Origin: Methanocorpusculum sp.
Lineage (GTDB): Archaea; Halobacteriota; Methanomicrobia; Methanomicrobiales; Methanocorpusculaceae
Direction of reading: 5' to 3'
DNA: 64,000 nucleotides
Assembly (NCBI GenBank): GCA_029987235.1
Contig: DALTWF010000003.1
Coordinates: forward strand, 2,641-66,640
Below are positions 21,137 to 55,925 of this stretch, piece by piece. The first letter of the stretch is position 1, and each line of letters opens with the position of its first letter. The notes beneath the pieces are model-generated. The model did no database searches. It was not told the origin of the DNA and worked only from the letters and a program-made list of their open reading frames with translations. The translations under genes were made by a program, and so were the position numbers.

Positions 21137-21187
21137 TGCGAAGGAAGGGATTTGAACCCCAGAATCACTACTGAACTAGCCCCTGAA
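21137..21187 (-). pseudogene. 3' half of host tRNA-Leu(CAG), split by the provirus (left att site)
   Basis: Minus strand TTCAGGG-GCTAG-TTCAGTAGTGATTC-TGGGG-TTCAAAT-CCCTT-CCTTCGC-A; its acceptor and anticodon stems pair with the half at 55885-55925. Confidence 0.93.
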
Positions 21188-21237
21188 TATACTGCTGTCC
21201 AACGGCATTATATACCACGCACCACCAATATAAGTGT

Positions 21238-22389
21238 ATGACATCTTCGGCAAACATAGATGACTATCCAAAGCTTCTCAACCCTGCCCTAATCCGCGGC
21301 GTATCTGAAAAAAACGCCACTCTCCTGCGCCGTTTCATAGACCGCCAGCGATTGAACGGAGTTAGCCTGAACGCAATAAACACCGGAGTGCACCGCCTCT
21401 CGTCCTGGATACGGACAATAGGAAAAGACGACGCCCTCGAATGGACCATAGAAGACATAGAATCCGCCTACCTGCATAAATCCGACGAAACGTCACGAGG
21501 ATATCGTAGCAATACCACATTAGACGGCGAACTGCGAATATTAAAACAGTTCTGGCACTTCCTGAACCCCGATAAACCACCGGTTACCATCCGCCGCAAA
21601 CCCACCAAACTCAGCATCGCCAACAGCGACATCGCCAGCACGGAACAAATCCTGCAGATGCGTGACGCCGCAGAACGAGCCGGAGACATCCGCGGCGCCG
21701 CCATGATAATGGCCCTTCTTGGCACCGGCTGCCGCGTATCAGAACTCCTCGACGCAAATATAAAGGATTTGACAATCGGCCGCCAATTTGCGATTATTTC
21801 AGTCGATGGAAAAACAGGCCAGAGAAAAGTCCCATTTGTAACTGGCCTCCCCGAACTTCAGCGCTGGGTCAATATGCATCCCGTAAGGTTGCCAGACGGA
21901 ACCGTTGATCCACAAGCCCCGCTTTTTGTAACCTACCAATCCCGAGGCCACACAACCGACCGCCTGAGCAAACGCCGCGCTGACTATATCATGGACAAAT
22001 ACAAAAAGGCAGCCGGAATCCCTGACCACGTCAAAGCTCACCCGCATGCACTCCGGCACCGGGGCGCGACCGAAGACGCCAGGAACCTGACCCAGAAAGA
22101 ACTCTGCCTCAAATATGGCTGGAGCGGCTACAGCGACATGCCGAAACGCTACACCCACACCGACCAGGCCCAACTCGAACGAACCATCCTCGAAGCTGCC
22201 GGCATCCGCCTGCCGCAGGAACCACCGAAAACAAAAACCGTTACCCAGTGCCCCCGCTGCGGAGCGGTAAACCGCGCCGGCGCCATGTTCTGCGACGTCT
22301 GCAGCCTGCCGCTGAATAGAGACTTTGAGATTGACCTCATCAAGACGAAACAAACAATAAGAACAATCGCAGACGATAAACAGGATTAG
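21238..22389 (+). CDS. int: tyrosine integrase with C-terminal zinc ribbon
   Basis: TGCRVSEL, KTG, HPHALRH, YGW, RYTH catalytic set; CPRC/CDVC; TTATATA at 21208-21214 suggests a leaderless promoter. Confidence 0.95.
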   Translation: MTSSANIDDYPKLLNPALIRGVSEKNATLLRRFIDRQRLNGVSLNAINTGVHRLSSWIRTIGKDDALEWTIEDIESAYLHKSDETSRGYRSNTTLDGELRILKQFWHFLNPDKPPVTIRRKPTKLSIANSDIASTEQILQMRDAAERAGDIRGAAMIMALLGTGCRVSELLDANIKDLTIGRQFAIISVDGKTGQRKVPFVTGLPELQRWVNMHPVRLPDGTVDPQAPLFVTYQSRGHTTDRLSKRRADYIMDKYKKAAGIPDHVKAHPHALRHRGATEDARNLTQKELCLKYGWSGYSDMPKRYTHTDQAQLERTILEAAGIRLPQEPPKTKTVTQCPRCGAVNRAGAMFCDVCSLPLNRDFEIDLIKTKQTIRTIADDKQD

Positions 22390-22489
22390 GTTAACATCAC
22401 AAACCTTCATTAACATATGACTTACACTCAGGACAGCCCCACCGCAGTACCGTATGAGTATGCCCAATCCTATTTAACCGAAGATAACG

Positions 22490-22782
22490 CATACTGTTAT
22501 GGCGTTTCCCGTATGGCATCACGGGGGCGCTGTGAAAACAGTATGAATATACATCTAAGATTTACCCTCAACTTGAAACTTACCACTTCAAGCTGTTGTA
22601 ACGTACCGCAGTCGGCTATGATGATATTTTGGGACTTACTCCCAATTATCATTTCCCCGCTGCGTGCGGGCAAACTGTTTTATAGTCGGCTCGCTAATAT
22701 GTTATTGTAAACTCTTAGATTAAGTTCTGAATTGTTTTCACGCGGGTTTTCGGCGGCGGGCTTGGTAACCCGTCATCACCGC
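22490..22782 (+). ncRNA. putative structured ncRNA unit 1
   Basis: Stems 22490-22498/22537-22545 with inner 22499-22512/22521-22533 (several G-U); 22553-22565/22707-22720 enclosing hairpins at 22572-22592, 22621-22652 and 22656-22670; GC hairpin ~22742-22782. Confidence 0.55.
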
Positions 22783-22793
22783 ATTTAAGTACC

Positions 22794-22824
22794 GTTACTT
22801 CCCTATTTTGACATCCTGTTTCGC
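22794..22824 (+). repeat. 31-bp direct repeat, copy 1
   Basis: GTTACTTCCCTATTTTGACATCCTGTTTCGC, identical to 23234-23264. Confidence 0.97.
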
Positions 22825-22948
22825 ATCCGCGCACACCCTCATCACATTATGCAGAATATCAATATCTTCTTATACTCAATGATGTAACCTATAATTACCT
22901 CTGATTTAATCGGATAAATCAGGGGGAGGGACATACCCAATGTTCTTT

Positions 22949-35302: not shown

Positions 35303-35748
35303 ACATCACCAAAGCAGAAAAACAATCCAGGATAAATGAAATCTTCAGACTCCTCATCACCCGAACCGACCGCAAAGCAATCCACCGCTATGCAATCCTG
35401 AAAGGCTGGAACATACACCCAAGAACAGTCGACGAATACATCGCAGAAGCCAACAAAGAGATCATCAAAACCGCAGCAGAAAACAGAGACGAAATGCTCG
35501 CACGCGCCACCCTTTGCCTTGACGACCTCTATACAAAATCATACAACATAAACGATTTCAAGACATGCGTCCAGGTAATGGACAGAGTGATAAAACTCCA
35601 CGGACTCGACGCCCCGACGGAGCACAAAGTCACCCTCACTGACATGGACCAGCTGCGTGAAACAATCAACGCAGCCATCAGCGCAGACCCGACCCAGCGC
35701 GACAGAATAACTGCCGCACTTCCCGACATGGACGAAGACGACCAGTGA
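35299..35748 (+). CDS. putative terminase small subunit
   Basis: HTH-like N-terminus, KLHGLDAP motif; directly upstream of the large terminase. Confidence 0.7.
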   Translation: MNITKAEKQSRINEIFRLLITRTDRKAIHRYAILKGWNIHPRTVDEYIAEANKEIIKTAAENRDEMLARATLCLDDLYTKSYNINDFKTCVQVMDRVIKLHGLDAPTEHKVTLTDMDQLRETINAAISADPTQRDRITAALPDMDEDDQ

Positions 35749-37124
35749 ACGAAGCGCTCGCGATAAGAGCCAATATCGACCTGCCAACATACCTCCGGGT
35801 CGCTAACCACGGTCAGTGGAAAAACGCACCGCACCTCAGCCTTCTCTGCAGCGCTCTCCACGAAATAGACGCAGGACAGACAAAGCGCCTCATCGTAAAC
35901 ATGCCGCCAAGGCACGGAAAGAGCGAAGTCATCTCAAAAGGGTTCCCCGGTTGGTATTTGGGACGCCATCCCGACCACGAAATAATGCTCACCAGTTACG
36001 GAGCAGAGCTCGCCGAAGACTTCTCACGCATCAACCGGGAGAAGCTCCGCGAGTTCGGGCCGGAGATATTCGGAGTGACAATAAGCAGAGCGTCCGCAGC
36101 CGTAGGACGCTGGGGCATAACAGGACACAAAGGAGGACTCGTCGCCGCAGGAGTCAACGGCCCGCTCACCGGCAGAGGAGCAAACGTCGCCATCATAGAC
36201 GACCCGATTAAAGGAGCGCTGGAAGCCAACTCCCAGACATACAGACAGCACCTCCTCGAATGGTACCAAACCGTCTTACGCACCCGCCTCGCCCCGGGAG
36301 GCGCAATAATCGTAGTTCAGACGCGATGGGCAAAACAAGACCTTGCAGGCTGGCTCATAGAACAGGCAGCAACCGGAGGAGAACAATGGAAAATCCTCAA
36401 CATGCCCGCGATCTCCGGAGAGGAACCCGACAGCATGAACAGAGCCCCAGAGCAGGCACTCTGGCCGGACAGATATCCGCTGCAGTACTTGAAAGACATC
36501 AAGCAAACCCTGACACCATACCAGTGGTCCGCGCTTTACCAGCAGCAACCGATTGATTACGAAGGAGCACTCTGGAAATTTGACACCATAGACGCGCACC
36601 GCGTCCCCGCCGGTTCCACCCCCGCAGGATTCAAGAGGATAGTGGTCGGGGTTGACCCGGCAGTGACATCCGGAGCCAGCAGCGACGAAACCGGCATCAT
36701 CGTCGCAGCAAGCGACAACACCGGCCACTTTTACATACTGGACGACCGCAGCGGGAAATATACCCCGAACGAAATGGTCCGCACATACACCGCAGCATAC
36801 TGGGAGCACCAGGCAAACGACGTCATCGCAGAAAACAACCAGGGAGGAGATCTCATCGAAGCACTGACCCACAACTATGACCGCCGGGTGAGATACAAGG
36901 CAGTAAGAGCCACCCGCGGCAAGCGCATCCGCGCAGAACCAATTGTCTCGCTTTACGAACAAGGTCTGGTCCACCACGCAGGAAGATTCGATCAGCTCGA
37001 AGAACAACTCGTGACATGGAACCCGATGAGCACAGACAGCCCCGACAGGCTCGACGCGCTCGTCTGGGCACTGACCGACCTCAGCACAAAAACACCGGCA
37101 TATCAGCCGCCAATCGTATTATGA
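35745..37124 (+). CDS. terL: terminase large subunit
   Basis: MPPRHGKS, IIDDP, QTRW, GVDPA, DRLDALVWA. Confidence 0.95.
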   Translation: MNEALAIRANIDLPTYLRVANHGQWKNAPHLSLLCSALHEIDAGQTKRLIVNMPPRHGKSEVISKGFPGWYLGRHPDHEIMLTSYGAELAEDFSRINREKLREFGPEIFGVTISRASAAVGRWGITGHKGGLVAAGVNGPLTGRGANVAIIDDPIKGALEANSQTYRQHLLEWYQTVLRTRLAPGGAIIVVQTRWAKQDLAGWLIEQAATGGEQWKILNMPAISGEEPDSMNRAPEQALWPDRYPLQYLKDIKQTLTPYQWSALYQQQPIDYEGALWKFDTIDAHRVPAGSTPAGFKRIVVGVDPAVTSGASSDETGIIVAASDNTGHFYILDDRSGKYTPNEMVRTYTAAYWEHQANDVIAENNQGGDLIEALTHNYDRRVRYKAVRATRGKRIRAEPIVSLYEQGLVHHAGRFDQLEEQLVTWNPMSTDSPDRLDALVWALTDLSTKTPAYQPPIVL

Positions 37125-38479
37125 ACGACAACACCAGCACCACCATCGCAGACCGCATAAAAGGTCTGTTTAAGAAACAACCGACAGAGATCAAAACAAA
37201 CGGACAGGTCACCCTTGCCACCGCAAACGAAGTCAGCACCTGGAACAGCCTGCTGCAAAGAGGAGAAGCACAGCACCAGGAAGTCTCCAAAAAATATCGG
37301 ACGATATACAGGAGCGGCGGCATCGTAAGAGCAGCCATTGACGCATACATCCTTTTCATCTTTTCAGGAGGATGGCAGATGGCAAGCGATGACGAACACC
37401 GCGACACCCAACAACTTATCCAGGATAACTTTTTTAGTAAAACCGGGGCATTTAACACAACCATCCAGCAGATGACACAGGACGCCATCTGCATCGGCGA
37501 CGGTTACGCGAAGATTCTCACCGGAGCCGGACAACTCACCCGCACCCCAGTCGCACTGCAGCACATCCCGGCCGAGAGAGTAAAACCCCACATTGATAAC
37601 ACATACTCAATCCTCTGGTATGATGTTTACAACAAGGACGGCAGCGCCATCCTTGAGAGGATAAAACCCGAAGACATGCTGCACGTTTGCCTGCAGCCAA
37701 GCGGAGGTGAAATATTCGGAGTCGGGCTGCTCGAAAGTGCATGGGACGAAATCCGCCACGATATCGAAGTCGCAGAAGGAAGCGCGGCCGCCATCCGCCG
37801 TCACGGATTCGGCATCTGGCACGCCAAGGTCAGCAGCACCGACCCGGAGACCACAATCACCGAAAAAGACGTCGATGCTGTACGCCAGAACATGAAATCC
37901 CTCAGCAGCAGAACAGAAATCGTGACGAGCAGCAACGTCGAAATCTCAGCACTGAACGAAGCAGGACAGATAAACGTCGGCGCATACGCAGACTGGAGCA
38001 TCGCAAGGCTCTGCACCGCGCTGGGGATGCCAGGAGAACTTCTGGGACTCCGCCAGGGAACCACCGACGCCACCGCAGTCAGCCGAATCGAGAATTTCTA
38101 TAAGAAGATACAGACTTACCAGGAACTGCTCGCACAGGCAATAAACACGCAGTACATCGACCGCATCCTTTCAAGCACCGGCAAAGTTCCAGGGAGCGTC
38201 TGGATTGAATACGCAGACCCAAGCCCGGAGGACAACATCAAGCGCGCTTCTTACGTCTCAAGCATAGCAGCCATCACCCCCGGTGACCCGTTCGGGATAA
38301 TGAGTCAGCAGCAGATCCAGACCTACCTCGGCATCGACCACGACCAGTGGGCAAAGGACGAAGAGTTCATGGAAAGCGAAACCAACGACGCAGCAATGGC
38401 AGCACTGGAGAACCTCACGTCAAAAGACGTTTCATCGCAGACGGAGGACAAAGCAGATGCCAGAGAGGAGAACCAATAA
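37121..38479 (+). CDS. portal protein
   Basis: Position after terL; ICIGDGY, FGVGLLE, ALGMPGELLG patterns; 452 aa. Confidence 0.85.
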   Translation: MNDNTSTTIADRIKGLFKKQPTEIKTNGQVTLATANEVSTWNSLLQRGEAQHQEVSKKYRTIYRSGGIVRAAIDAYILFIFSGGWQMASDDEHRDTQQLIQDNFFSKTGAFNTTIQQMTQDAICIGDGYAKILTGAGQLTRTPVALQHIPAERVKPHIDNTYSILWYDVYNKDGSAILERIKPEDMLHVCLQPSGGEIFGVGLLESAWDEIRHDIEVAEGSAAAIRRHGFGIWHAKVSSTDPETTITEKDVDAVRQNMKSLSSRTEIVTSSNVEISALNEAGQINVGAYADWSIARLCTALGMPGELLGLRQGTTDATAVSRIENFYKKIQTYQELLAQAINTQYIDRILSSTGKVPGSVWIEYADPSPEDNIKRASYVSSIAAITPGDPFGIMSQQQIQTYLGIDHDQWAKDEEFMESETNDAAMAALENLTSKDVSSQTEDKADAREENQ

Positions 38480-38810
38480 GAACCCCTCTCTTTCATCCAG
38501 GAGAAACCTCTGGCGCAGCAAGACAGAGGAGGCAAAATACTCAAGAGAGGCCCGGGCATTCATAGCAGACTATGGAGCGCGCCTGCAGGAAGCCCTGAAG
38601 ATATACAGCAGAGAAGACGCAGACGGGAACGTCACCATCGACATGGCTGGATTTCAGGAAAGGATGGAGCAGATAAAGACCGTTCTCCTTGCGCAGACAG
38701 GCGCAACCATAACCAAGGAACACGCCAAGGCAGGTCTGACTCTTGGCATAGAATACGCAGAACGAAGCCTCAAAGACGCAGGAGTAGAAGATGCCAAGTC
38801 CGCAGTATAA
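38457..38810 (+). CDS. head morphogenesis-associated protein (probable separate N-terminal MuF part)
   Basis: Helical 117-aa ORF between portal and MuF. Confidence 0.55.
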   Translation: MPERRTNKNPSLSSRRNLWRSKTEEAKYSREARAFIADYGARLQEALKIYSREDADGNVTIDMAGFQERMEQIKTVLLAQTGATITKEHAKAGLTLGIEYAERSLKDAGVEDAKSAV

Positions 38811-39996
38811 CTCAATCGTCTTCACGCAGGAAGACTGGCGCGTGCTTGACGTTTTAGAGACCCGCAACTTTGCCGCGCTCAAAGGAATCACCGACGACAT
38901 GAGTAAGGACATCACTCGCGCGCTGTCCGAAGGAGTCACCGCCGGAAAAGGGATGCCGGACCTGAGCAAGGCAATCTCCGATGCGACCGGCATGGCAAAG
39001 ACCAGAGCAGACCGGATGGCAAGGACGGAGACCATCAATGCCTGCGTCGACGCAGCCCGCAGCAGATACCAGGAACTCGGGGTTAAGGAGTTTGAGTTTG
39101 TCGCAGCCAGCGACGACAGGCTCTGCGACATTTGCGCGAGTTTCAACGGGAAAATATACAAGCTCACCGACGACGCACACCTGCCGCCAATCCACCCGAA
39201 CTGCCGCTGCGCAATAGCACCCATCATCGGAGACAGGAAGGAGGAAATCCTGAAAGAAACCAAAGGCACCGCAGGTGTTTACGCAAGAGGGAATAAACCA
39301 ACCACAGAAAGCAAGAACAACTCCCCAGTAATGAATGATGACCAGTTCACAACCATTCAAAAACTGGTCGCACAGTTATCACCGAATAACACAATAATAC
39401 TGGACGAATCAGTGAAGGATCTTGATTTTAAGGAGGTAAAAACAGTAATAAAAAGCTTGAAGACAATATCCTCAACCGAAACAGGGAGGGAAGCGCTATC
39501 AAAAATAACCAAGATAGACACAACAACAAAACCAGATGTTTATTTAGGGACAAGTTACACAAAGGACGGGAGTCTCATAATTTCAATAAATCACGACAAG
39601 TTTTTAAGTAAAAATATTCGTCAGACTCGGGAGGATTTCCAAAAAGAAACATGTCTTTTCATCCCAAATATGCGTTTTGATTTGGGAGGGAGACATGAAG
39701 GAATACACGCAGATACAATCAGATATTTGCTGAAAGCATACTCAGGAGACACAGCCAAAGTTTATAATGAATGGAAAAAAATAACCTCAACAAATCAAGA
39801 GGAGTGGAAAGGGACAATAATATTTAATCTAATAGAAAAGGCGATGATAGAATCGAACCAAAAAGTCCGAGATATATCATTAAACGCTTTTACAACACCT
39901 GCAGAGGCAATTGTTGAGGCAATACTGGATGTAGAACTTAACAAAGATAAAGCGCAAAGAATATCTATTACATTGAATAGATTATATTATACGTAA
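38791..39996 (+). CDS. MuF/SPP1-gp7 minor head protein with C-terminal HExxH (zincin-like) extension
   Basis: RMARTET, DDRLCDIC, PPIHPNCRC; AT-rich extension containing RHEGIH and AEAIVEA. Confidence 0.85.
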   Translation: MPSPQYNSIVFTQEDWRVLDVLETRNFAALKGITDDMSKDITRALSEGVTAGKGMPDLSKAISDATGMAKTRADRMARTETINACVDAARSRYQELGVKEFEFVAASDDRLCDICASFNGKIYKLTDDAHLPPIHPNCRCAIAPIIGDRKEEILKETKGTAGVYARGNKPTTESKNNSPVMNDDQFTTIQKLVAQLSPNNTIILDESVKDLDFKEVKTVIKSLKTISSTETGREALSKITKIDTTTKPDVYLGTSYTKDGSLIISINHDKFLSKNIRQTREDFQKETCLFIPNMRFDLGGRHEGIHADTIRYLLKAYSGDTAKVYNEWKKITSTNQEEWKGTIIFNLIEKAMIESNQKVRDISLNAFTTPAEAIVEAILDVELNKDKAQRISITLNRLYYT

Positions 39997-41118: not shown

Positions 41119-42168
41119 ATGACCGCCACATACAACGCAACCGAAGAGCTCGCAAAGACCCTCAAGGTTCTCTGCGCGCCAAACAAATCACAGAGAAACG
41201 CCCTCATCGACAAATACTTCACCGGCCGCAACCTTCCGGTCATGACCGACGAAGGGGTCAAGCAGAAGCACGACCTGCTCCGAAGCGAAACCTTAGACGG
41301 AGCCGCACTCCTGCTCCCGGATTTAGTCCGCACCATCAACAAAGGAGCACAGCCAGCGCTTGCAAGCCTCGGCGACATGTACACCGTCCTCAACACCACC
41401 AGCAACCAGGTCAAGATCCCAAGAGGCAATAAAAACAGCTTTGGGTCTTACGCACCGATTGTCGCAGAAGGAGCCAGCACCGCAGTCAACAACGACCGCA
41501 TCCTCTACTCGATGATAGACATCATCAAGACCCGGACAATCGCAGAAATCACCCGGGAAATGATGCGCGACAGCGAAATCGATATTGTCGCCTACGAAGT
41601 AGAAGCTGCAGGAGCCAGAGCAGCCAACACCATCCAGTCCGTCGCACTGTACGAGATGCAGAACAACGCAGCAGCAACCTCCAGCGAAACCGTCACCAGC
41701 GCAAAGACCCTCAAGGAAGCCATCAACGCAGAAATCGCAAACATCCAGAAGAAAGGATATGTGCCGGACAGAATCATGCTCACCCCCAAAGCAGGAGCAT
41801 GGCTCAGAGACGAGCTCACCCCGGGTTACTACGATGGAAACGACCCGATGAAACTCGGCGCAGTTCCGACCCTTTACGGAATCAAGTGCGTCGTCAACCC
41901 AATCGCACCAGCCACCTACTCCAGCCCCGATTACACTCCTGGAAACGGAACATTTGGAGGCACCAATGGCATCGGCGCCATTGTTTACGCGAAGGACAAA
42001 GCAGTCGCAGTCGCCATGCGGGAGCAGATAGGACTCGACGGAGACTTCAGAGACGTCTATAAGGACCTCGAAGCCATGGCGGTCTCCGCCAGATTCGGAG
42101 CCGGACCGATTCACAAATACGACTCAACCAACGCAGACGAAGCAGCCGCAGTCTACATTTCATACTGA
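41119..42168 (+). CDS. major capsid protein (HK97 fold)
   Basis: VAEG, EITREMMRDS, PTLYGI, RFG motifs; size and position. Confidence 0.88.
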   Translation: MTATYNATEELAKTLKVLCAPNKSQRNALIDKYFTGRNLPVMTDEGVKQKHDLLRSETLDGAALLLPDLVRTINKGAQPALASLGDMYTVLNTTSNQVKIPRGNKNSFGSYAPIVAEGASTAVNNDRILYSMIDIIKTRTIAEITREMMRDSEIDIVAYEVEAAGARAANTIQSVALYEMQNNAAATSSETVTSAKTLKEAINAEIANIQKKGYVPDRIMLTPKAGAWLRDELTPGYYDGNDPMKLGAVPTLYGIKCVVNPIAPATYSSPDYTPGNGTFGGTNGIGAIVYAKDKAVAVAMREQIGLDGDFRDVYKDLEAMAVSARFGAGPIHKYDSTNADEAAAVYISY

Positions 42169-45996: not shown

Positions 45997-47865
45997 ATGA
46001 CCGCAGAAACCGACGCAGGGTCAATAGTTATAAAAATAATCGCTGATACTTCAAAACTTGAGAAAGGAACCACATCTGCGAAAAAGGAGCTGCAGAAATT
46101 TAGTCAGGCAACTAAAGATGCCAGAACCAGCACCAACGGACTCCAGGAACAGATGGACCTGACCGGACAGGCAGCCACCGGTTCATCCCGCAGCATAGAC
46201 ACCCTCACTCAGGCAACCGAAGAAACAGCCGACGCAGCAGACACCGCTCAGATATCTCAGGAAGCGCTGGTCGCTGCACTTGCAAAGCTTGTCGACGAAG
46301 CAAGACAGGCAGGAACACAGACATCCAACGCAGGCGACCAGATAGAAAAAGCTGGCACGCAGGCAGAAAACACAGCCGGAAAAATGGACAAGATGAGAGG
46401 AGCTGCAAGAGAACTGAAAGCAGCCCTCGGCACAATCGGTCTGCTCGCAGTTTTGAAGAAAACAATTGATTATCTCGCCCAACTTGAAGATTCAAGCCGG
46501 AAAACATATCAAAACTTCGCCACGATGTCGCAAAACATCGAGAAAGCGACAACCAATTATAACACATTCAACAGCGCCACCAGAAACCTTGTCGGGGAAG
46601 ACGAAACACAGGAAGGAAATGCTGGTTATTATGTGAATAAGTATTTTGGATATGATACATTCACGAAAGGGTCCGCAGGATATAACATAGGCCAGGCCGC
46701 AATTAATGCAGCACAGACAACCGGGGTCGACGTAGTAACCATCTTATCCAAAACCGCAGAAATAATGGACAAGTATAACCGTGAGAGAGGAACCGAGACA
46801 CAAGTCCTCACGCAACTGCTGCAAATAGCAGACACCATGAACTCGCCGGACGCTTTCTCCGATTTGCTGACCGCATCCACCACTTATGACAAGTTATGGT
46901 ATGGAGAGAAGGGAATCGGTTTATCATACGAACAGATGCTCGCCGTTTTTCAGGCTTGGGGGAAAGACTGGAAGAGTGCCACAGAGGAGTCTGCAGTATG
47001 GCAGAAGGAACTGCAGGACATGCAGAACCAGATCGCCGAAGCTGTAGAAACCCTGCCGGAGATAAGAGGAGATCTGGCAGACGCGCAAAAAGAGAGTGAA
47101 GCACTCCTCGCCGAAAGAAAGGATCTCATCGCCGAAAAAGAAAAACGAACTGCAGAAGGGAAAGACACCGCAAGCATCGTCAAAGAGATCGCAAAAATAG
47201 ATGAAACCATCAAAGAATACGATTCTGAAATCAAAGACCTCAAACTGCAGATACAAGAGATGGAGCTCACAGCCACCCAGAAGCCCGGAGACCTTCTCAA
47301 AGAACTGATAACTGATGCAGGAGTCCTGACCGATGCCGAACTGTACACAAAGTTAAATGTCAAAGATAAGGATGAGTTTATCGAGTCCATAGAAAACCTG
47401 AAGACAATCGATGTAGAGAACTTGCCGGAGGGAGTAGAGACCGCAGTCCTGACACAAACCAGCCTTCTGCAGGACATCGGGGGCTGGATGCAGGATATCA
47501 GCGGAACAATCAAGGCTGCATACTTCTCCCCGGAGAACATCCAGGCTTACAGAACCGAAATATCATCGAAACTCGGCAATATTAACCCTTATGTGCAGGA
47601 AAAAACAAACCCCGCGGCAACCGTCGCAGCATACGGTCAACTTTTGCAGGAATATGAAGATCTGACAAAATCCCGGGACTACGCATATAACGAAACAAAG
47701 TGGGCAGAACTGCTCGCAAAGGTTGACAGATACCTGACACCAGGAGACACCACCAACAACATCTCCGTTTACATCGAAACCCCGCAGCTTGACACCTACG
47801 CAGCACAGAAGACTGCAGAAGCAATCGCAGCACAACAGTCGAAAACCAAAGCAGGAGCATATTAA
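45997..47865 (+). CDS. tape measure protein
   Basis: GSIVIKIIADTSKL N-terminus; long helical Ala/Glu/Thr-rich sequence; position. Confidence 0.85.
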   Translation: MTAETDAGSIVIKIIADTSKLEKGTTSAKKELQKFSQATKDARTSTNGLQEQMDLTGQAATGSSRSIDTLTQATEETADAADTAQISQEALVAALAKLVDEARQAGTQTSNAGDQIEKAGTQAENTAGKMDKMRGAARELKAALGTIGLLAVLKKTIDYLAQLEDSSRKTYQNFATMSQNIEKATTNYNTFNSATRNLVGEDETQEGNAGYYVNKYFGYDTFTKGSAGYNIGQAAINAAQTTGVDVVTILSKTAEIMDKYNRERGTETQVLTQLLQIADTMNSPDAFSDLLTASTTYDKLWYGEKGIGLSYEQMLAVFQAWGKDWKSATEESAVWQKELQDMQNQIAEAVETLPEIRGDLADAQKESEALLAERKDLIAEKEKRTAEGKDTASIVKEIAKIDETIKEYDSEIKDLKLQIQEMELTATQKPGDLLKELITDAGVLTDAELYTKLNVKDKDEFIESIENLKTIDVENLPEGVETAVLTQTSLLQDIGGWMQDISGTIKAAYFSPENIQAYRTEISSKLGNINPYVQEKTNPAATVAAYGQLLQEYEDLTKSRDYAYNETKWAELLAKVDRYLTPGDTTNNISVYIETPQLDTYAAQKTAEAIAAQQSKTKAGAY

Positions 47866-49499
47866 TGACAATCAAAACACAAATCGCAGGGTCACCGCAG
47901 ACCACCACACTGACTGCGTTCACCCTTGGCACCAGCACGACATTAAAAATAAGCAATGTCGCAGCCGTCCCGACACTGGGCAGCCCCAACAGTTCCACGA
48001 ACTACATCACCATAGTGAATGGAACCGGACAGGACGCACCGTTTGCTACGCTTGAATACACAGCAATCAACACCGCACAGCAACAGCTCACCATAAGCAG
48101 AGTCGTCGAGACAAACGCACAGAACGGATATGATTTCCCGACAGGATCAACCGCATTCAGACCATACTGCGCCGCAGACTGCAGCGACATCGCCGCAGAA
48201 ATCGCCGCAAAAGTGGCGGGAGTACAGAACGGAAACGGAGACAGCCTCGTCTCAGGAGGCACAGCCACCATCCCGACCGCAACAAACAACACGCTCGGCA
48301 TGGTAAAGATTGGGTCCGGCATAAACATAAACAACGGAGAAATCTCCGTCACAGGAAGCTCGACGCAGATATATGCTTTCACCATCGGAAGCGGGGCAAG
48401 CACCGACGCCATCACATACTCCGAAGCAGCAGCCAACCTTACCGAAGCGCAGCGCCGGGCCGTAGTAAGGTCACTCGCACATCACGCAATAGTAAACAAC
48501 GGTCAAATCGTAAACTGGCTTTATAACGATAACCTCGGATATACAGCCACAGATTACACAGGAACCGTCAGCACCGGGAACGCAAGCGACCTCACAGGCG
48601 CCGCAGGAGACGTTATGCTGCTCTACGAACCAATCTGGTGGACAGTTAGCCATGTGAACGACGGAAACACCACAATCCGCTTCTCTACGTACAAGTTCAG
48701 TCCGGACGCAGTGACCGCACATCAGTATGGAACCACAATATGCAGCTGGCTCGGCCTCGGTGTTTTTGAAGGGATAATCTCAAGCAGCGCCCTGCGTTCA
48801 ATGAACTCATCAGCGAAACCAACCGCCAGCATCACCAACGACGCAGCATATACTGCCGCAGTATATGGAAGGACAAACGGACACTATAACCAGATGCTCC
48901 CGATGACCTGGACGCTCTACGCAATCCTGCTTTTATTCGAAGGAGGAGACAGAAACACCCAGGCAAAGTGGGGTGCAGGATATACAAAGAGCACAAACAC
49001 CGCAAGCACCAACGTCAACTCCGACTGGTCCGCAGCAGCACCCTGGTGCCATGCGACACCGTACACCGACGGAGTCCACGGAGTCACCGCAGGAGGCATC
49101 CAAAATATGTGGGGCAACGTCTGGATATTTTTAGGAGAGTTCTGGAAAGGAACCAACAACGTCGCACACTTCACCATCACCGGAGGAAGCGACCACGCCA
49201 TGATTTCAACATCCCCGGCATACAGCGGAAGCTGCCAGATGACAGGGGTTAGCGCCGCATACATCAAAGACATAATCGGAAGCGACACAGTCCCGTTCTT
49301 ACCCAGAACAACAGGAGCAGCCGAAACAACATACTGGGCAGACTACTGTTACTCCAACACGACACAGTCAAACTGCGGTATCGTCGGCGGCTACTGGAAT
49401 TATGCCGCGCTTGCGGGCTTGTTCCTTGTGCATGTGTATTACGCGCTCGACCATTCCAATGCGGATCTCGGCGCGCGCCTCCAGATATTGATCGAATAA
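47865..49499 (+). CDS. DGR target: tail fibre/adhesin with C-terminal CLec-fold variable domain
   Basis: ATNNTLGMVKIG fibre motif, GIQNMWGNVW, GGYW...AGLF...GARL end containing the VR. Confidence 0.88.
   Translation: MTIKTQIAGSPQTTTLTAFTLGTSTTLKISNVAAVPTLGSPNSSTNYITIVNGTGQDAPFATLEYTAINTAQQQLTISRVVETNAQNGYDFPTGSTAFRPYCAADCSDIAAEIAAKVAGVQNGNGDSLVSGGTATIPTATNNTLGMVKIGSGININNGEISVTGSSTQIYAFTIGSGASTDAITYSEAAANLTEAQRRAVVRSLAHHAIVNNGQIVNWLYNDNLGYTATDYTGTVSTGNASDLTGAAGDVMLLYEPIWWTVSHVNDGNTTIRFSTYKFSPDAVTAHQYGTTICSWLGLGVFEGIISSSALRSMNSSAKPTASITNDAAYTAAVYGRTNGHYNQMLPMTWTLYAILLLFEGGDRNTQAKWGAGYTKSTNTASTNVNSDWSAAAPWCHATPYTDGVHGVTAGGIQNMWGNVWIFLGEFWKGTNNVAHFTITGGSDHAMISTSPAYSGSCQMTGVSAAYIKDIIGSDTVPFLPRTTGAAETTYWADYCYSNTTQSNCGIVGGYWNYAALAGLFLVHVYYALDHSNADLGARLQILIE
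49374..49478 (+). repeat. DGR variable repeat (VR)
   Basis: 105-nt ungapped match to TR; 13 of 16 mismatches are at TR adenines. Confidence 0.95.
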
Positions 49500-49537
49500 C
49501 AGACACCCCTTTTTTACGGGGGGCATTTTGATATTCA

Positions 49538-49642
49538 AGCAGTATCGTCGGCGGCTACTGGAATTATGCCGCGGGTGCGGGCTTGTTCAATGTGAATGTG
49601 AATAACACGCTCAGCAATTCCAATACGAATATCGGCGCGCGC
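49538..49642 (+). ncRNA. DGR template repeat (TR)
   Basis: 25 adenines, none at third codon positions in the VR frame; AAT/AAC-rich; between target and RT. Confidence 0.95.
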
Positions 49643-49751
49643 CAGCAAAGGATCTAAAAATCAAAATGCGCAAATGCCCCCCTGCCCCTTGGCAAAAATA
49701 CGACCAAAAAAAACAGGGAGCAACCAAAGCTCCCCAATCCTTTGGAGAATT

Positions 49752-50858
49752 ATGGACGACAAAACAGAACTATATAAACAGGTAATCACGACCGACAACG
49801 TCGCGAATTACGGCACAGCTTTTATGGCGCACGTAAACGCAAAACGAGGCAAAAGAAGTTACACACAAGTGCAGGAGTTCGAAGAAAACCTGCGAGACAA
49901 CCTGCACGAACTCATCGACGAAATACAGGCCGGAACTTACCGGACAGGAGATTACATCGTCGAGACCATAAACGATGGAAAGAAACCCCGAATAATAGCA
50001 AAGGTGCCGTATAAAGATAGAGTAGTTCAATGGATGCTCGCGATTTGGTACCAACCCTATTACCTCGAGCTTTTGTCCGACAACACACACGCAGCCATCC
50101 CCGGGAGAGGAATTCACTCCGCGCTCCGACAGGCAGAAGACTACATCCGCAAGGACGGAAACACCTGGGTGCTCAAACTCGACATAAGAAAATACTTCCC
50201 CCACATACACAGAGCGACCCTGCTCGAAATGATAAGGGAGGATATAGAGGACGATAATCTTTTTGAAGTAATCAAGAATATAATCCTCGACGCCCCGGAC
50301 AGCATAGTCGACGACGAAGGAACCGCAGCGCAAGACGGCATCCCGATAAGTAATTACTGGAGCCAGTTTATGGCCAACCGCTATATGGTCGAGTTCACAC
50401 GCTGGATGGAGACCAACGGTTACACGTTCTGCCAGTACATGGACGACATAGTCGTTTTTTCCAAAGATAAAGAACAGCTCAGGCGCGCTAAATTTGAGAT
50501 AGAGTGGTATATGGAACGGAATTTATCTTTGTCACTAAAGGCAAACTGGCAAATATTCAGACCCGCAGACCGCGGTCTGGATTTCGTAGGATATCGGATA
50601 TTCCCGGACAAAACAATCATAAGGAAAGACATTTACCTCAAGATGACCCGCTCACTCCGGGCAATAGCCAAGAAGATATCGGCAGAAAAGACAAAGGAGC
50701 TCACAGAGTCGCAGCGCTGCACCGTAATGTCGTATCTGGGCTGGGTTTGCCATTGTACATCGGAAACAAGGCGATTTATATATTTTAAGTACTTCGCCCC
50801 GATATTAAGCCAAACACACACACCACTTTCACACAAGTTAACAGAGTACTTCAAATGA
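49752..50858 (+). CDS. DGR reverse transcriptase
   Basis: KDRVVQ, GRGIH, LKLDIRKYF, GIPISNYWSQ, YMDD, GLDFVGY; start after GGAGA RBS. Confidence 0.95.
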   Translation: MDDKTELYKQVITTDNVANYGTAFMAHVNAKRGKRSYTQVQEFEENLRDNLHELIDEIQAGTYRTGDYIVETINDGKKPRIIAKVPYKDRVVQWMLAIWYQPYYLELLSDNTHAAIPGRGIHSALRQAEDYIRKDGNTWVLKLDIRKYFPHIHRATLLEMIREDIEDDNLFEVIKNIILDAPDSIVDDEGTAAQDGIPISNYWSQFMANRYMVEFTRWMETNGYTFCQYMDDIVVFSKDKEQLRRAKFEIEWYMERNLSLSLKANWQIFRPADRGLDFVGYRIFPDKTIIRKDIYLKMTRSLRAIAKKISAEKTKELTESQRCTVMSYLGWVCHCTSETRRFIYFKYFAPILSQTHTPLSHKLTEYFK

Positions 50859-51310: not shown

Positions 51311-53119
51311 GTGCTTTATTCACTAAACAAAAGCCAGCTGAACCGGACAAATGCCCCGCAGCAGGGACTTATCATCACAGAACCTGAGCTGACAGACCTT
51401 CTGATAAATACAGACTACGAATTCTCCGCAGAAGGAGCTGCAGAAGGACAGACTTATACATGGACTATTGGCGGTCAGACATACACTGGACAGACCGTCA
51501 CCGTTCGAACACCGACAACTCCGGGAACGCTCGCGGTTTCAGTAACAGATGGGCAGACAACCGCTGAGAAAGAATATTCTGTCCACCAGCCTGGAACCAT
51601 AACTGCCGTCACACTGGATGCCAGCCACGGAGAAGACGGAGCGGTCACCAGAACCATCTCCGCGACGATTTCTGCGACATACCAATACATCGCACAATGG
51701 AAGCAGAGCAACGACGCTGGGCAAACCTGGCAGACCGTAGGAGCCACAACAAACACTGCAACCTGGACAGGACAGGTTACCATTTCAACCGCATCAACGC
51801 TCTTCAAAGTATCCATAATCGGCGCAGGGATAACAGTCGACGCAGCCACTCATGCTGAGTATTTGGCAGACCCGAAGTTCATCACGCAGCCGACAGTGAC
51901 CCCGCAATCCGTGACGCTCGGAAACTCCATAAACTGCTCAGTCGCAGCCGCCAAATATACCCAAAGTTATTCATGGAAAGTCAAAGCGAATGAAGGAGAC
52001 TGGGTCGAGTTTTCAACAAACCTGACCGCAACATACACTCCCCAGACCGCAGGAACGTATCTGTTCAAGGTTGTGCTGACCGGAGCTCAAGGGACAACCC
52101 CTGCAGAAAGTAACATCACGACCACCACCGCAGGAGCTGCGCCGAGCATAACAATCACTGCACCGACAGAGGCAGAGTTCTCCGAAGGTTCAACAATCAC
52201 GTTTGCATGCAGCACGACCGGCGCAGAAGGAGCAACAGTCTCCTGGAACTTCGGAGACGGAACAACCGGGACAGGTACCACAATCGCCCATACATACGCA
52301 GCTGGAGTGAGCGGGAGAAAGACCATCACCGCCACGGTCTCAAACTCGTATGGAACCGCAAGCGACACGAAAGACATCGCACTCACCTCACCCTCATGGG
52401 TTTGGATAACAGAATCCGGGACGCAGTATTCACTCAGCGACAGAACCAGGTTTATTGTTTTAGAAGACGGAATCGACGGCTTCTCAAACAGCACGACAGA
52501 GCTCACGCTGAACGCAAACCCATCCGGCAGAGGAGAGACAATCACAAACGCAACGGTCAAGGCCAGGGACTGTGGCTTCGACATACTGATAATAGGAGCC
52601 AACAGAGAGGACATCATGCAGAAACGCCGCCTGCTTTTGGATATTTTCAATGCACCGGGAACGCTGCAAATCAAGCAGGGAGGGCAGACATATTTCCTGC
52701 ACTGCCGGACCGCAAGAGGATATCCTGCCATAAGAGACGGCACAAGACCTGACAACCATGCACGCGCCAAGGTCGCATCCGTTCGGTTCACCGCTGCAGA
52801 CCCGTATTTTTATGGGCCTGAAGTGTCAGCCACCGCAGGAACCATCCAGGTCGAAGGAGATGCGCCAGCACCCTGCACAATAGTGACCAGCAGCACGACT
52901 GCGAGCTGCACGGCTGGAGGAGTAACGAAGAGCATCACCTCGACAGAGACCGGAATCACCGTCGCGGTTTCTGACACAGATATCACCGCAACAAAGAACG
53001 GAGCCAACAAGATACCGACTTTCACATATAGCAGCAAGTTCTGGATGCTGGAGCCTGGAACCAACACGGTCGCAGGAGTAAGCTCGGTCACGTACAAACC
53101 CAGATGGAGCTCTATATGA
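51311..53119 (+). CDS. distal-tail (Dit-like) protein with N-terminal PKD/Ig domains
   Basis: WNFGDG PKD motif; C-terminal FTAADPYFYG and LEPGTN Dit-like motifs; GTG start with AGGAGG RBS. Confidence 0.75.
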   Translation: MLYSLNKSQLNRTNAPQQGLIITEPELTDLLINTDYEFSAEGAAEGQTYTWTIGGQTYTGQTVTVRTPTTPGTLAVSVTDGQTTAEKEYSVHQPGTITAVTLDASHGEDGAVTRTISATISATYQYIAQWKQSNDAGQTWQTVGATTNTATWTGQVTISTASTLFKVSIIGAGITVDAATHAEYLADPKFITQPTVTPQSVTLGNSINCSVAAAKYTQSYSWKVKANEGDWVEFSTNLTATYTPQTAGTYLFKVVLTGAQGTTPAESNITTTTAGAAPSITITAPTEAEFSEGSTITFACSTTGAEGATVSWNFGDGTTGTGTTIAHTYAAGVSGRKTITATVSNSYGTASDTKDIALTSPSWVWITESGTQYSLSDRTRFIVLEDGIDGFSNSTTELTLNANPSGRGETITNATVKARDCGFDILIIGANREDIMQKRRLLLDIFNAPGTLQIKQGGQTYFLHCRTARGYPAIRDGTRPDNHARAKVASVRFTAADPYFYGPEVSATAGTIQVEGDAPAPCTIVTSSTTASCTAGGVTKSITSTETGITVAVSDTDITATKNGANKIPTFTYSSKFWMLEPGTNTVAGVSSVTYKPRWSSI

Positions 53120-55698
53120 CCCTGACAATCACCTCCCCTTATACGGACAACGGTTATAAAACACAATACCCACACAGCCCGAAATTCCTGGTCGACTATT
53201 CAAACGTGATAACAACAGATATTTATAAGGTAAGGATTGTCCGCATAAATAGTGATTTCACGGAGACCATCATCACAACGGTCAGCTTTAACCCGGACAG
53301 CACGAACCACCAGACGATAGACTCAGGGATATGGATAACCACCGGGTCGACGATATACAACGGGGACGCATACAGATATATTGTGCGGTACTTAGATTAT
53401 GACTACCAAATAATATCAGCAGAGACCGCTGACTGGTTCGAGGTAAGGGGGAAAGCCGGAGCGACCACAAACGACCCAGTCACGGCATACACGCCAGAAG
53501 CAACATACATGATGCTGAACGAACACACGATTCAGGTGACCGTCAGCGAGAACCACACCAGCAGCAGCCCTGGGACGTTCCTGGAAAGCATGGACGGAAC
53601 CCCGCAGATCGTGCTGCAGTATTCCTATTCAGGAAAGGCACAATCAAGCAGTGGGATCATCGACAAACAGAGCTCATCCTATATCGAAATACGCCAGGCA
53701 ACCTCCGAGACAATAGGGCAGATGCACAGAACCTGGGTCCTTGTTTTCAAACAGGCCGGGACATACACCCTCACCCCGCGTGCGACATACTGTACCAGCG
53801 CCACCCAATCTGATATATACACCAGCACCAGAACTGGGTCGTTACTTCAGATAAAGGTATATGGGCCATCGAAGCCACTCCTCAAGATAGACCACGTCAC
53901 CGCAGCGGATGGAACTCACACCACTGGAGACACGACAAACTCAGGGGCCGCACCATTCCAGGTTCAGTTTATAGACAAATCGCTGGACAGCACCATCGGG
54001 GATCCATACCAGATCCCGCAACAGAACATCGTCGTCGAATTCGGAGACCCGGACTCAAAAACGAACATCCTGCAAATAAACAACCCAGGGGCAACAGCAA
54101 TCACCATCCCGACCTCAAGTCTACTGCATTCATACCCTGATTACAGGAGCAGGGGTTGCAGCATCACGGTCACGGATAAGAACGGAGGAATCACCTCCGG
54201 CCGCGTAATATTTGCACCGGACGCAACGCCAAGGGTTATCTCCGGAAGCCCGCCAAAACTGAACAACACCCCGCCCGGGACCACCGTCAGACCAGGAGAG
54301 CAACCCGCGCTGGTGACAGGTCAGGCCTGGGTCGCAGGAGACCCGGAGCCGACCGTGACATGGAAATATACCCTCGGGTCAAGCTCGTATTATACGGGAG
54401 AAAAGGAAGGAACCACGGCAGAGTTGTCCCTTTTAGCATCCGGATCATACACCATAACATGTGAGATCAAAAACAACGCAGGCACCATTATAAACACATA
54501 CTCATGGGCCGTAGTAGTCGACGCAGCCGCAACCAGGGCAGACACCCCGATCACCGGAATAAATGATTTTGAAGTATGGATTTTCAACACCAACGGAGAC
54601 AGGGTCGGCATCCTTGACCCAGCGACCCGCGCGGAGTATATAGACCGGTATGATCATGAAAAATACTGCGAATTTCAAATCCCGATAAATAGCCGGCACG
54701 CTCAATATTTGAGACGCGGAGCGCTCCTGGCTTTTGGATACCAGGGAAAGGCCCGGCTGATGATAGTAAACGAATACATCGAAGACACCGACGGAGGCAC
54801 CCTGACAATCGGAGCCGTCGACGCGGCCGGATCCCTATTCGAAGGCAGAGTCGCAATAATAGCCACCAGTAACAGCTCGGATGCCGGATATGATACCCAG
54901 AAATGCAGCGGAGAGGCCCTCATGCGCTACTATGCTCAGGCAAACTTGAAGGACCCAGGACAGGCCACGAATTACCGGGCCGCGCCAGGTTTCAAAGTAA
55001 TCGGCACGAACCAGGACCGGCCGGTCGGAGCAGACCCGGTCGTCTATTCGGCACGGTTTGAGACCACGGCAGAAATAATGGACGACCTCTGCAGCGCCAG
55101 CGGACTCGGCTGGGACATAACCATGCAGACCCCCGCAGCAGGAGAACCGAAGCTCGTCGTCGGCTGGAAAGTAATCCAGGGAGTGGACCGGACCATCGGA
55201 AACACCGCAGGAAACAGACCGGTTTATTTCACGGAAGACAACTGCACCGCGAAGGTCGGGCCATACTCGGAGTATTTAGGGCCAACGGTTGCAATCACCG
55301 CAGGAGAAGGAGCAGGAAGCTCGCGGGAATACTTGCGCTTTGGAGCGCCGACGGTTTCCGGGTTTGCCAGACGGGAGATCTTCGTCGATGCCAGCGATTG
55401 CAACGGAAGCACGGAGATGGAGCAGAAAGCCTTGTCTGAAATAGAAAGCGAAAAGGAACAGAGCATCACAATCGAGCCAACAGGGCGGCTTTATTCCTTT
55501 GGCACGGATTACACCACCGGAGACTTTGTCACGGTAAAAACAAAGAGCGGCCTGGACGTAAATCTGCAAATAAACCAAGCAACGGCCACGAAGGACAGCA
55601 GCGGAATCCACATCACACTGCAGCTTGGCACGGACCGCAGGAACCAGCAGACCCTCATGCGGAGGATCAGACTGGCCAACACATACGCCAAGAAATAA
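53116..55698 (+). CDS. baseplate/tail-tip protein (ReqiPepy6 gp37-like C-terminus) with N-terminal Ig/PKD domains
   Basis: AGEGAGSSR, GFARREIFVDA, FGTDYTTGDFVTV motifs. Confidence 0.72.
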   Translation: MTLTITSPYTDNGYKTQYPHSPKFLVDYSNVITTDIYKVRIVRINSDFTETIITTVSFNPDSTNHQTIDSGIWITTGSTIYNGDAYRYIVRYLDYDYQIISAETADWFEVRGKAGATTNDPVTAYTPEATYMMLNEHTIQVTVSENHTSSSPGTFLESMDGTPQIVLQYSYSGKAQSSSGIIDKQSSSYIEIRQATSETIGQMHRTWVLVFKQAGTYTLTPRATYCTSATQSDIYTSTRTGSLLQIKVYGPSKPLLKIDHVTAADGTHTTGDTTNSGAAPFQVQFIDKSLDSTIGDPYQIPQQNIVVEFGDPDSKTNILQINNPGATAITIPTSSLLHSYPDYRSRGCSITVTDKNGGITSGRVIFAPDATPRVISGSPPKLNNTPPGTTVRPGEQPALVTGQAWVAGDPEPTVTWKYTLGSSSYYTGEKEGTTAELSLLASGSYTITCEIKNNAGTIINTYSWAVVVDAAATRADTPITGINDFEVWIFNTNGDRVGILDPATRAEYIDRYDHEKYCEFQIPINSRHAQYLRRGALLAFGYQGKARLMIVNEYIEDTDGGTLTIGAVDAAGSLFEGRVAIIATSNSSDAGYDTQKCSGEALMRYYAQANLKDPGQATNYRAAPGFKVIGTNQDRPVGADPVVYSARFETTAEIMDDLCSASGLGWDITMQTPAAGEPKLVVGWKVIQGVDRTIGNTAGNRPVYFTEDNCTAKVGPYSEYLGPTVAITAGEGAGSSREYLRFGAPTVSGFARREIFVDASDCNGSTEMEQKALSEIESEKEQSITIEPTGRLYSFGTDYTTGDFVTVKTKSGLDVNLQINQATATKDSSGIHITLQLGTDRRNQQTLMRRIRLANTYAKK

Positions 55699-55744
55699 CC
55701 TGCAGACGGAGAGGGAAACCACTCCGATTTTTTAAAACAGAAAG

Positions 55745-55826
55745 TGGGAGAGACGGGAGTCGAACCCGCGAACAACTAATGACATGGCCCTGAACCATGC
55801 GCCTTTAACCTCTCGGCAACCCTCCC
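55745..55826 (-). tRNA. virus-encoded intact tRNA-Leu(CAG), 82 nt
   Basis: GGGAGGG-TT-GCC GAGAGGTTAAA GGC-G-CATGG TTCAGGG CCATG-TCATTAGTTGTTC-GCGGG TTCGACT CCCGT-CTCTCCC-A forms a full type II cloverleaf. Confidence 0.95.
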
Positions 55827-55884
55827 AAATATCGCCAATTTGACCGTATTTTTACCAAATATCACGCCGTATGGAGTGTTTATA

Positions 55885-55925
55885 CCCTGAAGCTAGCGCC
55901 GTTGGCCAGGCTTGGCTACCTTCGC
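55885..55925 (-). pseudogene. 5' half of host tRNA-Leu(CAG) (right att site)
   Basis: GCGAAGG-TA-GCCAAGCCTGGCCAACGGC-G-CTAGC-TTCAGGG, then unrelated viral sequence TATAAACAC. Confidence 0.93.

Follow-up and report, generated by a model that had tools for sequence, protein, structure and literature searches.

What becomes of a host tRNA gene when a virus integrates into it with nothing to repair it? This question is raised by a stretch of 64,000 nucleotides (nt) from Methanocorpusculum sp. (contig DALTWF010000003.1 of assembly GCA_029987235.1, positions 2,641 to 66,640; the whole stretch is referred to below as the window, and unless stated otherwise positions are those of the window). A provirus of 34,697 base pairs (bp) at 21188-55884 separates the two halves of a host tRNA-Leu(CAG) gene and carries, next to one junction, a complete tRNA-Leu with the same anticodon. 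We consider it probable, at roughly 0.8, that this provirus is an archaeal head-tailed virus with an integration module of the type that has been termed tRNA-dependent lysogeny in bacteriophages, and that the viral tRNA replaces the broken host tRNA. The anatomy of the locus, the empty site in relatives, the conservation of the layout, the match of anticodons over five isoacceptors and the compensatory evolution of the viral tRNAs are all shown by the sequences.

The host tRNA-Leu(CAG) gene is restored at neither junction

The host tRNA-Leu(CAG) gene is read from the minus strand and is present in two parts. The 5' half of 41 nt (55885..55925) comprises the acceptor 5' strand, the D arm, and the 5' strand of the anticodon stem with the loop. 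The 3' half (21137..21187) comprises the loop, the 3' strand of the anticodon stem, the long variable arm, the T arm, and the acceptor 3' strand, with the discriminator A at 21137. The only sequence common to both junctions is a 7-nt core, CCCTGAA on the plus strand, which corresponds to the anticodon loop TTCAGGG and is found at 21181..21187 and 55885..55891. The bases flanking the two copies differ, and the duplication is therefore exactly 7 nt long, as stated in a preliminary description of this locus. CCCTGAA occurs 8 times in the window for 7.7 expected occurrences, so that the repeat alone carries no meaning. The preliminary description had also proposed that the halves, 34.7 kb apart, join into one cloverleaf, and this was borne out: joined in a script, they were identified by ARAGORN as an 86-nt tRNA-Leu(cag).

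A hidden Markov model (HMM) of tRNA-Leu, applied to the whole window, gave three matches only, namely a whole tRNA at 55745-55824, a 3' part at 21137-21194, and a 5' part at 55882-55925. No second copy of either half was detected in the window with this model. In particular, no tRNA-like sequence was found behind the 5' half, at 55827-55884, in agreement with the earlier claim that the virus provides no copy of the 3' half at this position. The gene is therefore restored at neither junction. With a core of 7 nt, ARAGORN and the HMM detect halves only, and the locus lacks the hallmark of classical integration, in which a 3' part brought by the virus re-forms an intact tRNA.

A probable promoter box of the host gene, TTTATATT, is located 34-41 nt before the 5' half (55959..55966, minus strand), judging by the archaeal promoter consensus. 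Boxes of the same CTTTAT type precede the 5' halves of related elements in genomes G212, G344, G262, G117, and G186. A second host copy of the gene was also sought. The assembly comprises 57 contigs, is 81% complete, and contains 43 tRNAs, among which the sole Leu(cag) is the viral one; Leu(tag), Leu(gag), Leu(caa), and Leu(taa) are located elsewhere.

The provirus carries a complete tRNA-Leu(CAG) beside the break

The sole tRNA called by ARAGORN in the window is a complete tRNA-Leu(CAG) at 55744..55826 on the minus strand, with the anticodon stem CATGG/CCATG and discriminator A; a T-rich stretch follows it. Rfam places the same tRNA at 55745-55826 with a score of 46.8 bits, compared with 41.1 bits for an intact gene of the host type. 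The Rfam run at gathering thresholds on 136 kb returned 3 tRNAs and missed the host tRNA of locus L014, which scored 41.1 bits when searched alone. The viral tRNA and the rejoined host tRNA are 67% identical; the same anticodon is thus borne by a different body, as first described. A carried tRNA with the anticodon of the broken gene is a feature of tRNA-dependent lysogeny.

The viral tRNA is co-oriented with the broken 5' half and lies 58 nt behind it. The intervening spacer (55827..55884, minus strand) extends from the core to the tRNA and contains an A/T box, TAAAAATA, 21-28 nt before the tRNA start. The loop of the viral tRNA is identical to the core, and a second copy of these 7 nt is thus present only 58 nt from the first. 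The possibility that the viral tRNA is an ordinary gene of virus-free hosts was checked: among 44 other genomes of the genus, none yielded this tRNA, and the best match (77%) was a Leu(tag) gene. Likewise, no donor was found among 401 genomes of the order Methanomicrobiales, in which the best matches (83-84%) were ordinary Leu(tag/gag/cag) genes, and no match to the spacer was found in these genomes.

In the long open reading frames (ORFs) of the host, CUG accounts for 25.9% of the leucine codons, being the second most used (23.5 per 1000 codons), and CUA for 1.4%; in the provirus, the share of CUG is 29.8%. Because CUG is common and CUA rare, the CAG tRNA appears valuable to the host, although tRNA-Leu(UAG) could still read CUG.

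The empty site is present in virus-free relatives

Genome G051, a virus-free member of the genus, harbors an intact tRNA-Leu(cag) gene that contains the 41-nt 5' half of the window exactly. The rest of this gene corresponds by eye to the 3' half, and identity reaches 97% over the 3' half and its flank. Agreement of the rejoined halves with an intact tRNA of a virus-free relative had been set beforehand as a test of the preliminary description, which the description passed. The host gene for an AMP-binding enzyme (56017..57708, minus strand, Pfam) is the conserved upstream neighbor of the tRNA-Leu(CAG) locus, and its homologues in the genus (77-81% identical) are followed by the tRNA downstream. 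Eleven loci behind this gene were compared in relatives of the genus. At four of them the tRNA-Leu(cag) gene is unbroken and can be aligned over the break point, with 81-85% identity. No tRNA was present in the fetched stretch at the other seven, and several of these seven genomes have the intact gene on another contig, as indicated by matches to the 5' and 3' halves overlapping by 7 nt.

Only four DNA sequencing runs, all of a single study, were found to contain part of the stretch, and that a small one. Contigs from these runs cover 55885-56712 and then continue, before 55885, into a tRNA 3' half. These contigs originate from a relative with about 28 differences per 828 bases (about 96-97% identical), and in the same four runs only the host side is covered, with no cover on 53000-55884. 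In G019, another member of the genus, the 5' and 3' parts of tRNA-Leu(CAG) are each located no more than about 20 bases from a contig end (L015, start of C3, and L016, start of C62). This pattern would arise from a sampled population that was mixed for insertion at the tRNA-Leu(CAG) site.

The integrase belongs to a clade with a conserved layout

The provirus encodes an intact tyrosine integrase of 383 amino acids (21238..22389, plus strand; Pfam PF00589, E 7e-15) with a C-terminal zinc ribbon. The integrase-side arm of the viral attachment site (attP) extends from 21188 to 21237 and contains an A/T box, TTATATA (21209-21215), 23-29 nt before the integrase ATG. This box is probably the integrase promoter, and related loci have similar arms that include a TATATA box. 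The residues invariant in the integrase alignment include R166, K192, H270, R273, Y305, C338, C341, C352, and C355. The R, K, HxxR, and Y motifs of tyrosine integrases are thus conserved, and the junctions fall inside tRNA-Leu(CAG), as expected for a virus-encoded enzyme whose host attachment site (attB) overlaps a tRNA gene. The ORF is intact and 50 nt from the core, which distinguishes the element from the SSV type, in which attP lies inside the integrase gene and integration splits it. Among solved structures, the chain nearest to it is that of the Xer-like recombinase 4a8e. The invariant CPxC...CxxC zinc ribbon (residues 338-356, 22249-22305) is C-terminal to the catalytic tyrosine and is unusual for tyrosine recombinases.

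Homologues of the integrase (31-42% identical) were found at E<=1e-25 in 58 of the 401 genomes of Methanomicrobiales. The integrase-proximal side was read at 29 loci besides that of the window. In all 29, the 3' part of a tRNA-Leu adjoins the integrase gene on the opposite strand and is broken at the anticodon loop; all five leucine isoacceptors are affected, the anticodon being CAG at 10 loci (two in the attP form), GAG at 6, UAG at 7, UAA at 3, and CAA at 3. Since the integrase-side junction alone would also fit a classical element that restores the tRNA, the far ends were fetched. Apart from the window, 24 elements were searched for their far junction, of which 22 are from the order and 2 from Candidatus Methanoperedens genomes. 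It was found for 20, including the two from Candidatus Methanoperedens; for G214, G282, G215, and G177:C10 the contig ended before the far junction was reached. Each of these 20 junctions comprises the host promoter region, a 5' half ending in the loop, a spacer, and a complete tRNA-Leu, i.e. the layout that the preliminary description had suggested looking for in other methanogen proviruses. With the window included, both junctions are known for 21 of 25 elements. In all 21, the carried tRNA has the anticodon of the broken gene, and five leucine isoacceptors are represented.

Eighteen elements, the window and 17 others, were tabulated. Their spacers range from 31 to 114 nt, and the carried tRNA is co-oriented with the host gene in every case. 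The rejoined halves were called as tRNA-Leu in 17 of the 18, G401 being the failure, and the loops of the two junctions are identical in 15; they differ at one base each in G262, G405, and G117. In G401, from Candidatus Methanoperedens (L190, ~590-650), the 5' half of the broken tRNA-Leu(UAA) contains about 15 extra bases in the D-arm region, owing to which ARAGORN does not call the rejoined halves; these bases may be an intron or an insertion.

Unintegrated (attP) forms were found in five instances, on two contigs of genomes of the order (G325 and G361) and at three of five IMG/VR loci. A single integrase query of IMG/VR gave one weak match of 19 residues, and an alignment query gave the five loci. 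Each attP form consists of a whole tRNA-Leu, a spacer of about 50-55 nt, the core, the conserved arm, and the integrase gene, and in all five, one GAG case included, the core agrees with the anticodon of the carried tRNA. In G325, the genes beyond the tRNA are large ORFs devoid of Pfam matches, and the spacer is visibly homologous to the junction spacer of G212. The five attP forms and this homology indicate that the tRNA is viral and that the attP region includes it.

A scan of all species genomes beyond the order detected 80 loci with relatives of the integrase (26-37% identity). At 40 of these, including loci from Methanoperedens, Methanosarcina, and Methanococcoides, the integrase gene adjoins a tRNA-Leu 3' part whose match begins at HMM position 20-35. 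The closest integrase loci were from Methanoregula, Methanoculleus, Methanolinea, Methanofollis, and Methanocalculus. Two integrase contigs, L124 and L133, are filed in bacterial metagenome-assembled genomes (MAGs; Oscillospiraceae, Bacteroides). An archaeal-type tRNA-Leu 3' part is found beside the integrase in L124, which is probably a mis-binned archaeal contig, and a whole tRNA-Leu is found at that place in L133.

Viral tRNAs keep their fold and diverge in the anticodon stem

In a tree of 30 integrases, at least 9 isoacceptor changes are needed, the minimum possible being 4, and sister integrases are found on different isoacceptors (e.g. L027 on CAG and L031 on GAG). The integrases of the window and of G059 form a long-branched pair set apart in this tree. 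The carried tRNAs preserve their cloverleaf: among 23 viral tRNAs, 17 of the 23 predicted pairs show compensatory changes, on both sides and keeping the pair. No helix in this set varies more than the anticodon stem, yet none of its pairs is broken. This stem differs between the host gene and the viral copy in 18 of 18 comparisons. In the five most similar host and viral pairs (G059, G320, G299, G174, and G186, which amount to fewer than five independent cases since G320 and G299 are close kin), 14 of the 19 differences are located in the 10 positions of the stem. This distribution suggests that the anticodon stem is part of what the integrase reads. If so, a recoded stem would keep the viral tRNA from recombining with the core close by and would also protect it against superinfecting viruses.

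Gene content of the provirus and flanking genes

The provirus is of the head-tailed, siphovirus-like type, with nearly all genes on the plus strand and a G+C content of 51.3%, versus 46.7% in the flanks of the window. The integrase gene is followed, in this order, by genes for Bro-N and RecT proteins, the large terminase (Terminase_6N/6C, 35745-37124), the portal (Phage_portal, 37016-38479), a Mu F-like (MuF) protein (38791-39996), a putative capsid protein (41119-42168), an HK97 gp10-like protein, a tail completion protein, a reverse transcriptase, a Dit-like tail protein (51311-53119), and a Gp37-like tail protein (53104-55698). These assignments are based on Pfam matches, which also include an Ig-like domain. 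The set of large terminase, portal, HK97-type capsid, and tail genes expected of Caudoviricetes is thus present, with a weak match for the capsid protein (E 4e-4). On the side of the 3' half, the flanking host gene, downstream from the broken tRNA, encodes a transporter of the SNF family (19666..21030, minus strand, Pfam).

A diversity-generating retroelement is present inside the provirus (49375-50858). Its reverse transcriptase gene (RVT_1, 49674-50858) is preceded by a template repeat of 105 nt (49539-49643), and the variable repeat (49375-49479) is located at the 3' end of an ORF for 544 amino acids in the tail region (47865-49499). The two repeats are 86% identical, and 12 of the 15 mismatches are at A residues of the template.

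In G059, the region downstream from the carried tRNA (C30 12400-19128, L021) contains small ORFs, an ArdC-like antirestriction/metallopeptidase gene, and a glycosyltransferase gene. The start of C1 (L017 1-300) truncates a tail gene, the remainder of which would be expected on C30 downstream from the carried tRNA but is absent there, and LPG-synthase and FkbM genes are on the opposite side of the tRNA locus in comparison with the window. The G059 provirus has either a large accessory region or consists of two tandem elements.

Discussion

In the mechanism that we propose, the tyrosine integrase recombines attP of the virus with the tRNA-Leu(CAG) gene of the host, and the anticodon loop of 7 nt acts as the overlap (crossover) region. 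Since attP shares only this loop with the gene, the host tRNA is left as two dead halves at the provirus ends. The viral tRNA is co-oriented at a distance of 58 nt from the core, and integration therefore brings it immediately downstream from the promoter of the host tRNA and the truncated 5' half. It would then be expressed either from the A/T box of the spacer (TAAAAATA) or by read-through from the host promoter, and would take over CUG decoding. The changed anticodon stem would prevent the integrase from using the viral copy as a second target, and precise excision would restore the host gene.

Read-through from the host promoter may occur, since T runs never exceed 3 in the spacer or the 5' half, whereas the sequence behind the viral tRNA has T-rich stretches. 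By inspection and comparison with the archaeal promoter consensus, long spacers (G091, G149) have T runs of their own and promoter-like boxes, and short ones (31 nt in G186) leave little room; both routes may therefore be used.

Several observations weigh against this scheme or narrow it. The assembly is 81% complete, and a second Leu(CAG) gene may exist outside it; the host has kept tRNA-Leu(UAG), which might read CUG by wobble, and this weakens the claim that the lysogen depends on the viral tRNA. Regarding expression, a search of sequencing runs revealed no RNA run covering this stretch of the window, which bears on both transcription and charging of the viral tRNA, and no promoter box at a constant distance was seen by eye in the spacers. 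For the virus of the window itself, neither an attP form nor an excised one was observed. All the related elements come from a single integrase clade, and their common layout reflects conservation rather than independent origins. There are also odd cases. The far junction is on a different contig from the integrase side in G059 and G104, and the junctions of G177:C13 were placed by BLAST and one reading only. In G260 (C1 397593-502992), the 5' junction with its replacement tRNA-Leu(UAA) is 105 kb away from the integrase-side 3' half, with no tRNA-Leu within 60 kb of the integrase side; the element may be very large, several elements may form an array, or the region may have been rearranged. 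In G117, the junction loops differ at the first anticodon base (TTCAGGG in the 5' half, L076 7326-7412, versus TTGAGGG in the 3' half, L029), the carried tRNA is of the CAG type, and the integrase and arm group with those of GAG-type elements. This could result from mismatch-tolerant integration, an isoacceptor switch in progress, or later mutation in a dead half.

The viral tRNA might, alternatively, be cargo that serves viral translation or counteracts tRNA-targeting defences, the broken gene being tolerated because tRNA-Leu(UAG) reads CUG, with no replacement involved. The host does contain a tRNA-Leu(tag), CUG is frequent in the provirus (29.8% of leucine codons, as given above), and phage tRNAs have often been explained as cargo, according to the discussion in PMC10865867. 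However, cargo selected by codon usage would not be expected to follow the anticodon of the broken gene, as the carried tRNA does in 21 of 21 elements and 5 of 5 attP forms over five isoacceptors, nor does it account for a tRNA that is always found at a distance of 31-114 nt from the core and, in the 18 tabulated elements, runs in the direction of the host gene. In addition, the rarity of CUA relative to CUG makes it doubtful that the UAG tRNA is abundant. We therefore regard the cargo explanation as unlikely.

The halves of split tRNA genes in Nanoarchaeum are encoded far apart in the genome, and the two halves in the window could by analogy be transcribed separately, pair through their flanks, and be trans-spliced. 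Cofolding of the halves with 40 nt of flank each does give acceptor-stem pairing and a trailer/leader duplex of -17.9 kcal/mol, but shuffled leaders gave -14.2 +/- 3.0 kcal/mol and 22 of 200 were as low, indicating that the duplex is no better than chance. The distance between the halves is the only resemblance to Nanoarchaeum: here both halves contain the 7-nt loop, as expected of a recombination overlap, their flanks are viral attP arms, the gene is in one piece in virus-free relatives, and every related element tabulated has, next to the break, a complete tRNA of matching anticodon. A trans-spliced tRNA was accordingly rejected on the grounds of the shuffle range and of the loop common to both halves, and we regard it as extremely improbable. 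Just as improbable is an artefact or a one-off accident, such as a chimeric contig in a MAG or integration at a rare secondary site. The fragmentation and incompleteness of the assembly (57 contigs, 81%) and a 7-nt repeat that is not significant in itself would leave room for such an event. Against this, both junctions are on one contig with host genes on either side, the position of the break within the loop is the same at all 29 loci read, and an assembly artefact is excluded since the layout recurs in genomes listed as single contigs (G117, G091, G320, and G092) as well as on long contigs (395 kb in G212 and 192 kb in G115). The layout is not an accident.

Replacement of the broken tRNA by the viral one, which remains our preferred explanation, invites a more tentative proposal that we consider somewhat less likely to be right than wrong. 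The loop might act as a re-programmable address, such that a virus could switch to another isoacceptor merely by point changes in the attP core matched by changes in the anticodon of its cargo tRNA, G117 being perhaps in the midst of such a switch. Integration would put the cargo under the host promoter, the recoded stem would hide it from the integrase, and decay of the provirus ends would cost the cell a tRNA, thereby stabilising lysogeny.

Classical tRNA-targeting tyrosine integrases reportedly cross over in the anticodon loop, as Williams is said to have described in 2002. The window shares with them the 7-nt overlap in this loop, the symmetric stem flanks, and an intact integrase gene next to attP. 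In the classical case, however, attP carries the displaced part of the tRNA and the gene is re-formed, whereas nothing is re-formed here. A review of archaeal tyrosine recombinases (PMC8371274) gives reconstitution of an intact tRNA gene after integration as the general rule, and the passages on this subject mention no such exception.

The principle of disrupting a tRNA gene and providing a replacement is already known from bacteriophages. The structural part of this interpretation, a broken gene with a whole cognate tRNA beside the break, holds for the provirus, and the preliminary description needs correcting on two points: the strategy has bacterial precedents, and the suggested dependence of lysogens on the viral tRNA is weakened by the host tRNA-Leu(UAG). 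Guerrero-Bustamante and Hatfull 2024 (PMC10865867) define tRNA-dependent lysogeny in actinobacteriophages including Fionnbharth, LeBron, and Gaia, and also mention the prophage Lj965. The phage tRNA was shown by genetics to be necessary, since a tRNA-deletion mutant of mycobacteriophage Fionnbharth integrates yet fails to form stable lysogens. The actinophages and the window have in common a tyrosine integrase, an attB in a tRNA gene, a core too short to rebuild this gene, and a carried tRNA with the same anticodon. The cores are 8-17 bp long in the actinophages (8 bp in Gaia, which targets tRNA-Leu) and 7 bp in the window, i.e. exactly the anticodon loop. The archaeal elements are further set apart from the actinophages by the host, by a Xer-like archaeal integrase with a C-terminal zinc ribbon, and by the position of the tRNA, co-oriented at 31-114 nt from the core and landing behind the host promoter. 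Moreover, the tRNA is rebuilt in no examinable element of the archaeal clade, whereas actinophage groups mix both modes (Table 2 of PMC10865867).

A second bacterial precedent is the group of Rhizobium phage vTRX32-1 (PMC8631192), which uses a 12-bp motif to integrate into tRNA-Leu; the host gene is interrupted, and the phage brings a complete tRNA-Leu with it. The authors of that study suggest that a phage tRNA lacking the motif avoids integration into the phage itself, and our proposal for the recoded stem follows the same logic. The two systems differ in that vTRX32-1 is a podovirus-like phage of bacteria with a tRNA devoid of the core motif, whereas the viral tRNA of the window keeps the 7-nt loop and differs in the anticodon stem. 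No archaeal case of tRNA-dependent lysogeny was found in the open literature, the search having a scope that excluded subscription journals and bioRxiv supplements. The new features are the archaeal setting, fixation throughout a clade, the use of all five leucine isoacceptors with co-switching of core and anticodon, the tight linkage of tRNA and attP, and the recoded anticodon stem.

These findings extend tRNA-dependent lysogeny from bacteriophages to archaeal viruses, in which it is not a sporadic variant but a fixed habit of an integrase clade that is widespread in Methanomicrobiales and Methanoperedens. They contradict the general statement, made for archaeal elements too, that the target gene is re-formed upon integration into a tRNA. 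In practice, provirus finders that rely on a long att repeat or on a restored tRNA will misplace the ends of these elements, and tRNA annotation of such genomes will list viral tRNAs as host genes. The module is compact, consisting of the integrase, an attP of about 120 bp, and the tRNA, which makes it a natural candidate for integration vectors in methanogens and a clean system for studying how a tyrosine recombinase reads a tRNA gene.

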